Below are positions 45,968 to 48,161 of a stretch of 63,254 bases of DNA, piece after piece (the stretch's first letter is position 1; each line of letters opens with the position of its first letter). A model generated the notes under the pieces. It did not search any database and was not told the DNA's origin. It saw nothing but the letters and a program-made list of their open reading frames with translations. A program made the position numbers and the translations under genes. The stretch lies in the IMG/VR virus record IMGVR_UViG_3300049144_000047, positions 1 through 63,254 of that record, one strand, 5' to 3'. This stretch comes from a virus. Its lineage: Duplodnaviria; Caudoviricetes.

Positions 45968-46221
45968 CCGCCGACCGCTACGCGTGGATGGACGCCGCCC
46001 TGTGCGCCCAAGCCGACCCCGACGCCTGGCACCCCGACGGCAAAGGCGCCAAATACGGGCCCGCCAAAACCATCTGCGGACACTGCCCCGTCCAGGCCGA
46101 CTGCGACGCCCACGCCGACAACCTGCACGCCTACGACGGCCTCGCCATGAACGGCATGTGGGCCGGACACAGCAAGAAACAACGCGAAGACCAGCGACGC
46201 GAGATGGGAGAAGCCGCGTGA
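45964..46221 (+). CDS. WhiB-family transcription factor
   Basis: C..AKTICGHCPV..C..GMWAG. Confidence 0.88.
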   Translation: MTADRYAWMDAALCAQADPDAWHPDGKGAKYGPAKTICGHCPVQADCDAHADNLHAYDGLAMNGMWAGHSKKQREDQRREMGEAA

Positions 46222-47576
46222 GCCTCCGCATCGGCTCCCTCTTCACCGGCACTGGTGCCCTCGACCTGGCCGTCATGGACGTCTACGACGCCGAAGTTGT
46301 CTGGCACTCCCAGTACGAACCGCCAGACAAGAACGGCAAGGAAGACAAGAACCAGTACGCCGCCCGCATCCTCGCCCGGCACTGGCCCGACGTGCCGAAC
46401 CTCGGCGACATCACCAAAGTCGACTGGCACGTCGTCATCGAGGAGCACGGGCCGATCGACATCCTCACCGGCGGCTTCCCCTGCCAGGACGTGTCCTCCG
46501 CGGGCCGTCGGGTCGGCCTTGCGCCCGACTCCCGCTCCGGGCTGTGGACCCACATGGCCCGTGCCGTCGCCATCCTCAAACCCCGATTGGTGATCATCGA
46601 AAATGTCGAAGGGCTCCTCTCAGCGCCGGCTGCCAGCGACATGGAACCCTGCCCGTACTGCGTGGGAGACCGACACTCTGGGCCTCTACTGCGGGCATGC
46701 GGAGCCGTACTTGGCGACCTGGCCACCCTCGGGCTCGATGCGGAATGGGGTCGCTACGGAGCGGACGAAGTCGGTGCCCCGCACCGCCGCCGCCGCATCA
46801 TCATCCGAGCCTGGCCGACTCATGCCGACCCCGCGGACCTCGGACACGAACGGGGCTGGGACGCACGGCGACGGGGGCATGGATTTGCGGACGGCGGTGT
46901 CGCTGCTGCCGACTCCGATGGCTGGCGATTCGAAGGGCACCAGGAACGCGACGGCGAGCCGGAAGCGGGAGAACCCGAACGTGAACGCGGGCTGGACCCT
47001 GTCGGACGTGATCTACGACGGGCGGCTGTCGAACCCGCCTGCCCCACCTGCGGATGCGGCGAGTGGATGCACGACGCCGGAGGATTCTGCGCCGGATGCC
47101 GCAACTGCACCGACCCCGAACTCGGACGGCCCGATGAAGCTGATGCCGACACCTCGGGCGACCGAAGGCACGAAGGGCGGCCCGAACCAGCGAGGCAGCA
47201 AGGGCGACCTGATGCTGCCGAGCCTGGCGGCGCAACTCCTGCCCACACCGACAGCGTCGGATGCCGAACGGACGTCCTCGACCTACGGCCGGGGCAACCC
47301 GACCTTGACTGGGGCGATTACGGACCCGCCATCCGTCGGTGGGAACGCATCCTCGGACGACCAGCCCCCTGGCCCACCGACGCTCTGGGACGACTGAGCG
47401 CCGTCTTCACCGAATGGCTCATGGGCCTCCCCGACGGCTGGGTCACCGACACCCCAGGCCTCACCCGGGCCGCCATGCTCCGCGCCCTCGGCAACGGCGT
47501 CGTCCGCCAGCAGGCCGCCCACGCCATCCGCGACCTGCACCAGCGAACGGCAGCCAGCCAACGAGCCGCCGCGTGA
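46218..47576 (+). CDS. DNA (cytosine-5) methyltransferase
   Basis: SLFTGTG (I), GGFPCQD (IV), ENV (VI), HRRRR (VIII), EWLMG..LGNGV (IX/X). Confidence 0.9.
   Translation: MSLRIGSLFTGTGALDLAVMDVYDAEVVWHSQYEPPDKNGKEDKNQYAARILARHWPDVPNLGDITKVDWHVVIEEHGPIDILTGGFPCQDVSSAGRRVGLAPDSRSGLWTHMARAVAILKPRLVIIENVEGLLSAPAASDMEPCPYCVGDRHSGPLLRACGAVLGDLATLGLDAEWGRYGADEVGAPHRRRRIIIRAWPTHADPADLGHERGWDARRRGHGFADGGVAAADSDGWRFEGHQERDGEPEAGEPERERGLDPVGRDLRRAAVEPACPTCGCGEWMHDAGGFCAGCRNCTDPELGRPDEADADTSGDRRHEGRPEPARQQGRPDAAEPGGATPAHTDSVGCRTDVLDLRPGQPDLDWGDYGPAIRRWERILGRPAPWPTDALGRLSAVFTEWLMGLPDGWVTDTPGLTRAAMLRALGNGVVRQQAAHAIRDLHQRTAASQRAAA
46603..47397 (+). CDS. Nested +1-frame LPTP-repeat protein inside the methyltransferase
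   Basis: 264-aa ORF, four L(L/M)PTP repeats, GC3-rich codons in this frame. Confidence 0.65.
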   Translation: MSKGSSQRRLPATWNPARTAWETDTLGLYCGHAEPYLATWPPSGSMRNGVATERTKSVPRTAAAASSSEPGRLMPTPRTSDTNGAGTHGDGGMDLRTAVSLLPTPMAGDSKGTRNATASRKRENPNVNAGWTLSDVIYDGRLSNPPAPPADAASGCTTPEDSAPDAATAPTPNSDGPMKLMPTPRATEGTKGGPNQRGSKGDLMLPSLAAQLLPTPTASDAERTSSTYGRGNPTLTGAITDPPSVGGNASSDDQPPGPPTLWDD

Positions 47577-47705
47577 GCACCCCAGCCAGCCGGCCGCGCG
47601 CCGGACCGGACACGGGATTTGCGCACGCCGCAGCGACCCGCAAACGCCCTGTCACATCCCACGACAGGCACTGACCAGCCGAAACGCTAACCCGCACACG
47701 ACAAA

Positions 47706-47752: not shown

Positions 47753-48004
47753 TCAGCCGCCGTGGTTCCGCAGCGCAGCGGTCATGTCCGTGTAGATGTC
47801 CGGCCAGTTCGCGCGTATGTAGGCGACGAGCTCGCGGTCGCTTTTCGCCTGCTCGTACCGCTTCACCGAGATGAGTACGGCCTGGGGCTTGTCGCGGCGG
47901 GTGAGCACAAAGTCGACGTCGAGCAGCCGCGCTTCGGAGATCACGTCGGTCATGTTGGCGCGGGCGTCGGAGACGCCGAGCTCGCGAACCTTCCTCTCAT
48001 CCAT
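47753..48004 (-). CDS. Orphan Phd/YefM-family antitoxin-like protein
   Basis: LGVSDARANMTDVI..LTRRDKPQAVLIS. Confidence 0.8.
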   Translation of the reverse strand: MDERKVRELGVSDARANMTDVISEARLLDVDFVLTRRDKPQAVLISVKRYEQAKSDRELVAYIRANWPDIYTDMTAALRNHGG

Positions 48005-48161
48005 GCGACCAGGATACACATGAGCCCTGTTGTAATCTCCGTCGCGTTGTACAATTCAGATGCGAGCGAACCCCCAGCACCACGGGCCACGCCGCCCCCA
48101 TGAGGGCTGCCTCAAAACAGCAACTGACCAGCAGAGACACCCTCCTGAGAGAAGAGATCAC

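Follow-up and report, generated by a model that had tools for sequence, protein, structure and literature searches.

In the excerpts of PMC3404938, M.AquI and M.EcoHK31I are the only C5 cytosine DNA methyltransferases named as consisting of two polypeptides. According to these excerpts, the alpha subunit of M.AquI contains motifs I-VIII and a part of the variable region, and its beta subunit contains the rest of the variable region and motifs IX-X. The excerpts of PMC2836561 and PMC3404938 describe the beta subunit of M.EcoHK31I of E. coli as carrying motif IX, and its alpha subunit as carrying motifs I-VIII, motif X, and the target-recognition domain (TRD). According to PMC2836561, in-frame starts downstream of the beta start of M.EcoHK31I also had to be silenced to obtain alpha alone. 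The gene analyzed here is located at positions 46218-47576 of the IMG/VR virus record IMGVR_UViG_3300049144_000047 (Duplodnaviria; Caudoviricetes), whose entire 63,254-nucleotide stretch is termed the window. Frame 0 of this gene encodes a chain with the motifs of a C5 methyltransferase, termed alpha, and the +1 frame encodes a second chain nested in it, termed beta. The best explanation for this arrangement is that one DNA stretch read in two frames encodes a two-polypeptide C5 DNA methyltransferase, and this explanation is probably correct.

The alpha open reading frame (ORF) extends in frame 0 from GTG at 46218 to TGA at 47576 without an internal stop, and encodes 452 amino acid residues. 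It is located on the plus strand, as are all features of alpha and beta given below. Its catalytic part (46236-46814) contains motif I (FxGxG, 46236-46265), motif IV (GGFPCQDVS with PCQ, 46470-46496), motif VI (IIENV, 46593-46619), the motif VII region (46686-46748), and motif VIII (46773-46814). The presence of motifs I, IV, VI, and VIII in this order within one chain identifies alpha as a C5 cytosine DNA methyltransferase. The catalytic part is modeled with confidence by AlphaFold2, is matched by Pfam PF00145 (DNA_methylase) at alpha residues 4-198 only (E-value of 1.6e-23), and gives a profile match to residues 12-178 of M.HhaI when the related alignment A4 is used. TIGR00675 matches alpha with an E-value of 1.3e-22 and 80.9 bits, which is below its cut-off of 100.65, and phrog_363 spans alpha residues 2-446. 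The C-terminal part (47310-47576) begins with WGDYGPAIRRWE (47310-47345), followed by motif IX (RLSAVFTEWLMGLPDGW, 47391-47450) and motif X (LGNGVV, matching GNxV, 47487-47504), so that both motifs follow the variable region in frame 0. The columns of A4 equivalent to motifs IX-X align weakly with residues 271-310 of M.HhaI. A folded TRD is not seen between motifs VIII and IX of alpha in the AlphaFold2 model of alpha alone, in which the core is confident and linker residues 213-361 have a predicted local distance difference test score (pLDDT) of about 30. A Cys module (CPTCGCGEWMHDAGGFCAGCRNCTDPELGRP, 47040-47132) is located in this linker and has a pLDDT of about 50.

The beta ORF extends in the +1 frame from ATG at 46603 to TGA at 47397 (795 nt, 264 residues) and lies entirely within the alpha ORF. 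Its N-module (WNPARTAW...TWPPSGSMRNG, 46642-46749) shares its coding bases with alpha motifs VI-VIII and is predicted to dock on alpha. It is followed by four cassettes with L(L/M)PTPxxx(D/E) heads, which start at 46819, 46903, 47140, and 47236. These are cassettes B (LMPTPRTSD..., 46819-46902), D (LLPTPMAGD..., 46903-47028), A (LMPTPRATEGTKGGPNQRGSKGDLMLPS..., 47140-47235), and C (LLPTPTASD...GNPTLTGAI, 47236-47319). The beta tail (47320-47397) gives no sign of +1 selection, and its changes track frame 0. Pfam and NCBIfam assign beta to no family, a profile search of the PDB gives no relative (best E-value of 0.8), and a search of the ESM Atlas gives only unnamed clusters of hypothetical proteins.

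The two frames differ in their composition along the overlap. The G+C content at third codon positions (GC3) of the +1 frame is 0.82 over 46812-47282, the Cys cluster at 47028-47117 excepted. At this cluster frame 0 reads CPTCGCGEWMHDAGGFCAGCRNC, and GC3 is 0.83 in frame 0 versus 0.60 in the +1 frame, which reads there as a Pro/Ala/Ser/Thr linker. Across cassettes B and D, frame 0 reads as an Asp/Gly/Arg/Glu-rich linker. The initial annotation, made from the window alone, had placed all catalytic motifs in an open main frame, had started the +1 ORF at an ATG within the ENV codons GAA AAT GTC, and had described four GC3-rich LPTP modules in the +1 frame and a Cys cluster in the main frame where the +1 frame looks like a linker. 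All of these claims hold, the last one also by the frame-0 pattern of substitutions at the Cys cluster.

In topology, the locus resembles M.EcoHK31I as described in the excerpts, in which beta likewise lies entirely inside alpha in another frame. The initial annotation had correctly named M.EcoHK31I as a precedent for a second polypeptide encoded in an alternative frame, but the content of beta differs. The beta subunit of M.EcoHK31I consists of motif IX, whereas in the window motifs I-VIII, IX, and X all belong to alpha, and beta consists of a docking module and LLPTP cassettes. Motif IX is therefore not supplied by beta. The locus differs from M.AquI, as described in the excerpts, in that motifs IX-X are in the alpha frame and beta ends before them and is wholly nested. 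The division of M.AquI, with alpha ending after motif VIII and beta containing motifs IX-X, is found instead in the split relatives gp77/gp76 of phage Noelle and, as read from their sequences, in ByChance, TaylorSipht, and the locus L061. M.SPRI, M.Phi3TI, and M.H2I, multispecific enzymes of Bacillus phages on which PMC8936443 cites earlier work, are likewise phage-borne and contain several short variable-region modules in tandem. They differ from the enzyme of the window in that they are single chains, and no sequence likeness to them is found, the +1 product matching only actinobacterial phages.

Mismatch rates between the window and 14 relatives were determined at frame-0 codon positions 1/2/3, of which position 1 is the third position of the +1 frame. 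They are 0.115/0.109/0.301 in the upstream region encoding only alpha (46218-46602), 0.172/0.148/0.278 in the overlap (46603-46811), 0.258/0.198/0.176 at cassettes B and D (46812-47027), 0.064/0.129/0.175 at the Cys module (47028-47120), 0.327/0.123/0.126 at cassettes A and C (47121-47282), 0.070/0.063/0.220 at the beta tail (47283-47397), and 0.146/0.105/0.220 in the downstream region encoding only alpha (47398-47576). Substitutions in the alpha stretch between motifs VIII and IX thus track the +1 frame. As this pattern shows, the cassettes evolve in the manner of +1 codons, and the Cys module and the two ends in that of frame-0 codons, with the final 26 codons of beta as a free rider. The same phase switches recur when 18 non-redundant loci, drawn from 23 of a second set, are aligned independently. 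In this set, the diversity by position in the overlap is 0.08/0.06/0.14 and 0.03/0.11/0.12, with values of 0.06-0.11 at third positions of the alpha frame, compared with 0.26-0.44 at alpha third positions elsewhere, and it is low in both frames in the N-module stretch. Among the six closest relatives of the window, frame-0 third-position mismatches amount to 63/420 in the overlap and 222/768 upstream (Fisher p 5.5e-8, the rows not being independent). In all 21 loci compared, including the split phages, the mean frame-0 GC3 decreases from 0.87 to 0.66 in the overlap, and the mean +1 GC3 increases from 0.67 to 0.81. Taken from these comparisons, dual coding is almost certainly under selection.

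Stop codons are absent from frame 0 in the 6875 cassette-region codons of 45 non-duplicate loci. At the empirical rate of 0.0079 stops per codon, as found in ordinary genes of this phage, 27.1 frame-0 stops are expected in 171 non-redundant 20-codon tiles (of 317 from these loci), and none is observed. When synonymous +1 codons are permuted, between 0.39 and 4.85 frame-0 stops are predicted for the cassette region of a locus, and none is found in any of 16 loci; for a second locus set, the permutation predicts 38.6 stops, and again none is observed. Because the alpha frame is held open across the cassettes, alpha must be translated through them to reach motifs IX-X. The cassette region of beta is also free of stops in 44 of the 45 loci. 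The initial annotation had pointed to stops in the +1 frame of homologs as a check on its reading, and this frame is clean except at a single locus, which is described below. The openness of the single +1 ORF of the window was rejected as evidence on its own, because nested open stretches are common in the window: those in the +1 frame of 20 ordinary ORFs reach up to 231 codons (median of 112). Likewise, 16 of 41 control segments are open in a comparable frame, 20 of 96 ordinary 72-codon segments are open, and a within-region permutation test of +1 openness in the overlap is weak, with a per-locus P(open) of 0.09-1.0.

The ATG of beta at 46603 arises from GAA AAT GTC of the ENV motif. AAT is used for the Asn of this motif by 15 of 18 non-duplicate loci and, in a further set, by 26 of 29, compared with an AAC:AAT background of 86:5 in the parts read only in frame 0 and of 162:10 in ordinary ORFs. 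The proposed initiation site (46589-46605) consists of GGTGATC (46589-46595), a 7-nt spacer, and ATG (46603-46605). GGTGATC, which lies 4-7 nt upstream of ATG and is presumably complementary to the 3' end of 16S rRNA, is not independent evidence for the beta start, because it also encodes Val-Ile. In six phage loci outside the Streptomyces type (L001, L003, L004, L021, L022, and L023), ENV is encoded with AAC GTN, and in all six a purine-rich, Shine-Dalgarno-like AGR GGR is followed by a GTG start in the +1 frame. In L021, GAG TGC gives rise to this GTG, and in the other five loci it comes from AGT, a rare codon for Ser; the annotated start of gp76 in Noelle is this +1 GTG. Beta therefore appears to possess its own conserved start. 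Downstream of this start, alignment A1 of the N-module contains the invariant residues W14, W21, T39, W40, P41, S43, G44, R47, and G49. Met and Asn in SGSMRNG are not automatic readings of alpha, but result from rare alpha codons (GAT and GAA in the window, TAT and CAA in Phinally).

The layout is widespread. When 50,697 phage records are searched by tblastn with the +1 product, 162 records match, from phages of Mycobacterium, Arthrobacter, Gordonia, Propionibacterium, and Streptomyces; among the 30 matches listed of these 162, 27 lie under genes annotated as DNA methylase or methyltransferase. The +1 frame of Phinally gp5, Darolandstone gp38, MidnightRain gp84, and prophi104-2 gp17 reads W(N/D)P..W...TxPTSGxxxNG, followed by LLPTP modules. 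A protein search with beta gives 1954 matches at an E-value of 0.001 or less among 8000 scored, most of which are hypothetical proteins without a Pfam match and some of which were called by NCBI in genomes of Streptomyces. With a profile of the beta N-terminus, 7778 cluster representatives are matched at the same threshold, mostly from residues 1-3 of the hit onward. In the window and in 20 of 20 loci (a set with three duplicates), a single frame contains both motifs I-VIII and motifs IX-X, the cassettes are in the +1 frame, and frame 0 is open. The N-module is matched at an E-value of 1e-5 or less in 76 of 301 sampled genomes of Streptomyces, the genus of L016, and all 29 loci fetched from these genomes have the same layout, with frame 0 open between motifs VIII and IX and the +1 cassette region free of stops. 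The layout in which beta is nested wholly inside the alpha ORF in another frame is conserved in all 45 loci, and is common to phages of four host genera (Gordonia, Streptomyces, Arthrobacter, and Mycobacterium).

The relatives differ in the frame in which the cassettes are encoded. In the split type, Noelle gp77 contains motifs I-VIII, and gp76 in the +1 frame contains the N-module, cassettes, and motifs IX-X; these genes overlap by 182 nt and are annotated as two methyltransferase genes. ByChance, TaylorSipht, and L061 have a Noelle-like +1 ORF, which extends upstream of the annotated start where one exists. In the early-rejoining type (Phinally, prophi104-2, and L063), beta consists of the N-module and one or two cassettes, and the other cassettes are in the alpha frame. 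In the late-rejoining type (the window, Darolandstone, MidnightRain, and all Streptomyces loci), beta contains all of the cassettes. In the single-frame type, represented by P0112 and 3080 relatives (E-value of 1e-10 or less, of 8000 scored), which are named DNA cytosine methyltransferase and come from Actinoplanes, Micromonospora, and others, all parts are in one frame. P0112 has the same core as the window enzyme, cassette types A, B, and C-like, and the WGxYxPAIxRWE end with motifs IX-X, but differs in having all parts in one frame and a shorter spacing between motifs VI and VII. In P0112 and L063, cassettes are in frame between motifs VIII and IX; L063 also carries a short +1 ORF with TWPRSG and one cassette. 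The split, rejoined, and single-frame relatives together indicate that the cassettes occupy the variable region between motifs VIII and IX, and can be located on either chain. A single profile, phrog_1008 ('DNA methyltransferase', 329 positions), is matched by the +1 product at positions 71-215 (E-value of 1.2e-25) and by the frame-0 C-terminus at positions 222-328, so that a phage family with both parts in one frame exists; in the window, the two parts of this profile are matched in different frames. Among the four hits inspected in which the N-module is internal, none has it placed behind motif VIII within a single frame; they instead represent a LAGLIDADG fusion (P0149 and P0162), an extension further upstream within the +1 frame (P0155), and an odd fusion of ENV to the N-module (P0134). 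In P0149 and P0162, a LAGLIDADG-like domain is joined in frame ahead of the N-module, and in the Gordonia phages Hans and Inspectinfecti, an annotated endonuclease gene lies within the span of the methyltransferase match. Homing endonucleases seem to target the alpha/beta junction.

The cassettes were typed by cutting beta of 23 loci at LLPTP-like heads and clustering the pieces. At least 18 cassette types recur in two or more of these loci, and each locus contains 2-7 cassettes in varying sets and orders. The order is B-D-A-C in the window, B-R-D-C in L020, Q-T-D-C in L011, J-E-H-D-A-C in L005, and B-R-F-G-A-L-C in L006. Comparison of the loci shows that cassettes are shuffled among relatives, and the proposal of the initial annotation that the LPTP cassettes are swappable is thereby borne out. 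Several tandem variable-region modules, four in the window, are also found in multispecific C5 methyltransferases such as M.SPRI, M.Phi3TI, and M.H2I, whose TRDs are short and independent; each cassette of the window might have a target sequence of its own. The Cys module is optional as well. It is present in 8 and missing from 6 of 14 non-duplicate Streptomyces-type loci, and is present twice in L010, where the diverged second copy retains the Cys residues. It thus behaves like a cassette of the alpha frame, as far as its distribution indicates. Zinc binding by this module would be speculative, the match to Pfam Phage_zn_bind_2 having an E-value of 0.23 and the pLDDT being about 50. Neither P0112 nor alpha gives a usable AlphaFold2 model of the cassette region or the Cys module.

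Binding between alpha and beta is supported by prediction. When alpha (A2) and beta (A3) are co-folded, the interaction prediction score from aligned errors (ipSAE) is 0.91, 0.93, and 0.92, and that of the best of three controls is 0.00; the co-folding check proposed with the initial annotation is thus passed (0.92 versus 0.00). This mark is reached by 58 of 80 solved complexes and by 2 of 110 mismatched pairs, a comparison that is rough only, because own alignments were used here. The contacts agree between the runs by at least 91%, and the pLDDT of the partners is at least 66. The predicted interface is formed by alpha residues 133-201 and 363-447, the latter in the C-terminal part, and beta residues 14-105. 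The tightest predicted pairs are those between beta residues 39-49 (TWPPSGSMRNG) and alpha residues 161-179, both of which are encoded by the same bases. This pass is unlikely to be the memory of a known complex, because beta has no solved relative.

Variation is also seen in alpha around the region overlapped by the beta N-terminus. The insertion between motifs VI and VII (46635-46661 in the window) contains a CxxC pair (EPCPYCVGD) in some relatives and an acidic Cys-free variant (LGLDAEALEEE) in others, when the window, L003, L013, and L023 are compared, and these two variants pair with two distinct beta N-termini. In alpha of L002 (Streptomyces phage Darolandstone gp38), ~70 additional residues, which include a Cys/His-rich stretch, are inserted between motif IV and the TRSGLW region (residues about 105-175 of the annotated protein).

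Several observations weigh against a two-polypeptide enzyme with beta as its specificity subunit. When all 14 relatives are pooled, alpha-synonymous change is barely lower in the overlap than upstream (0.278 versus 0.301), and only the close relatives and the 18-locus set display a clear decrease. Stops are overpredicted by the permutation null, which expects 66.5 in ordinary genes where 50 are found, an excess of about a quarter, and the empirical rate was used for this reason. At one locus (L005 = L016 = L026), beta contains a TAG and alpha is open. TWPxSG in the +1 frame is partly an automatic reading of the conserved LGDLAxLG of alpha in GC-rich codons. The co-folding score is the model's own confidence and no measurement. 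Residues 182-330 of the single-frame relative P0112, which contain its cassettes, have a pLDDT below 50 and are not covered by Pfam. As to the locus with the TAG, this codon replaces a Tyr codon of cassette H, and the +1 cassettes downstream of it are intact; it could be a recent knockout, or beta could be made there in two pieces.

The role of beta is the first point on which another explanation must be weighed. In the single-frame relatives, the cassettes occupy the place of target recognition between motifs VIII and IX, and beta is therefore most likely a detachable variable-region (specificity) subunit. It is this position that suggests the cassettes to be TRDs. Anti-restriction, which the initial annotation had proposed together with multi-specific methylation, would be a possible role of the enzyme. 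Beta could instead be a real, separate alpha-binding protein that serves as a regulator, chaperone, or inhibitor, or an overprinted protein with another task such as counter-defence. This possibility is rather unlikely, but it accounts well for a cassette region that is not confidently folded and has no relative in Pfam or the PDB, for the placement of only beta residues 14-105 against alpha, and for the presence of cassettes A and B in 15 and 13 of 23 loci, respectively, which resembles a structural core more than a specificity element. It accounts poorly for the single-frame and early-rejoining relatives P0112, L001, L004, and L063, in which these cassettes belong to the methyltransferase chain itself, located after motif VIII and before motif IX, and for the split relatives, in which beta carries motifs IX-X too.

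The existence of single-frame relatives also raises the question whether the two frames of the window are joined in one polypeptide by programmed frameshifts, from 0 to +1 after motif VIII and back to 0 before WGxY, so that the single-frame enzyme is recreated. Recoding may occur in this family, because a related subfamily has a candidate +1 site, CAA AGA C, in motif IV in 23 of 29 loci. Nevertheless, such a polypeptide is very unlikely. The N-module shares its bases with motifs VI-VIII, and WGDY (47310-47321) lies partly within the end of cassette C (47293-47319), so that one chain cannot hold both. Four shifts would be required once the Cys module is counted, and no common slippery site is seen at the junctions in the sequences read, no motif scan having been run. 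Moreover, one polypeptide needs neither an open alpha frame through the cassettes nor a conserved start of beta, yet both exist.

That the +1 ORF is unexpressed, with the gene a methyltransferase that is either ordinary or in decay and with the +1 similarity left over from earlier frameshift mutations, fits the facts that GC-rich DNA rarely holds stops in other frames, that long alternative-frame ORFs are common in the window and open control segments are frequent (16 of 41), and that one relative has a stop in beta, but is already disfavoured and scarcely credible in view of the third-position pattern that tracks the +1 frame in the cassettes of two independent sets, the openness of beta in 44 and of alpha in 45 of 45 loci, the conservation of a rare start-creating codon, and a layout shared across phages of four host genera.

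The explanation by two polypeptides, which the initial annotation had also proposed, is the one that agrees with the frame-specific selection, the conserved internal start, the open alpha frame, the split annotated relatives, and the co-folding result. Comparison of the loci shows selection on the two frames, conservation of the internal start, and shuffling of the cassettes, and binding of beta to alpha is predicted; beta would be needed for activity and, by the position of its cassettes, would set the specificity. According to this explanation, ribosomes starting at GTG 46218 would make alpha, with catalytic motifs I-VIII, a linker of ~165 residues that is predicted to be disordered and carries the optional Cys-rich module, and motifs IX-X. 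Ribosomes starting at ATG 46603 within the ENV codons would make beta. The N-module of beta would dock on alpha, at the face of motifs VI-VIII and at the C-terminal part, with the four LLPTP cassettes hanging behind, and the ordered modules of each chain would be read as low-complexity linker in the other frame.

A more far-reaching version of this proposal is offered only tentatively. The locus may be an interleaved dual-coded gene, in which modules alternate in the order alpha core, beta docking, beta cassettes, alpha Cys module, beta cassettes, and alpha end, and in which each frame reads the modules of the other as disordered linker. The cassettes may be recombining mini-TRDs, from which phages and prophages of Streptomyces and related hosts assemble multi-specific protective methyltransferases, and exchanged cassettes would have to stay stop-free in the second frame. 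A sister subfamily may add a programmed +1 frameshift at CAA AGA C in motif IV. In this subfamily (L033-L035 and L038-L057, 23 of 29 Streptomyces loci), motifs I-IV are one base out of frame with motifs VI-VIII, and the junction contains the conserved TTC CCN TGY CAA AGA YGT (about 1344-1351 of L033), which reads FPCQ and then DVS after a +1 step. The Arg at the junction is encoded by AGA, which is a rare codon. In each of the 23 loci, a TGA is located 8 codons upstream in the downstream frame, and third-position diversity changes phase exactly at the CAA AGA C site. The site is thus a candidate for programmed +1 frameshifting inside motif IV; no such shift is present in the gene of the window.

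The window is a complete virus record with a CheckV completeness of 100% and a G+C content of ~68%. Contigs from a second sample of another study span 46147-47700 with no differing letter and no gap, and the frame layout is therefore not an assembly indel. The methyltransferase gene is located within a replication/recombination block, in which the Pfam matches are, in order, a weak clamp-like hit, RecT, an RNase_T-type exonuclease, DUF4326, WhiB, the methyltransferase, a Phd/YefM-like ORF on the opposite strand, and DnaB helicase. Because a Pfam scan of the nine ORFs neighbouring the methyltransferase gives no match to a restriction-endonuclease family, the enzyme is read as an orphan phage enzyme, as far as its neighbourhood indicates. 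The stop codon of the WhiB-family gene (45970-46221, Pfam E-value of 5.4e-13) overlaps the GTG start of alpha as GTGA, which suggests possible translational coupling of WhiB and the methyltransferase. The Phd/YefM antitoxin-like ORF (47753-48019, minus strand, Pfam E-value of 3.2e-8) is directly downstream of the methyltransferase and faces it, with no obvious toxin partner on its downstream side.

A full-text literature search gave no published account of a nested layout in actinobacterial or phage methyltransferases. The enzyme represents a known but rare kind in a new variant, whose wide occurrence is unexpected and whose annotation is poor. Public records either lack the nested beta, as for Darolandstone gp38, which is a single 'DNA methylase' coding sequence, or list it as 'hypothetical protein' (P0030, P0037, and others), so that methyltransferase annotation and specificity prediction are systematically incomplete for these genes. 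Two-polypeptide C5 methyltransferases have been treated as rare exceptions, and the family characterized by the overlapping alpha/beta layout is very large. Its long dual coding (795 nt), with selection alternating between frames, provides a clean natural case for testing the evolution of overlapping genes and their recombination. If it is true that the cassettes set the specificity, this family would represent a modular DNA methylation system, and the cassettes of a phage would provide a readout of the host restriction systems against which the phage is protected.

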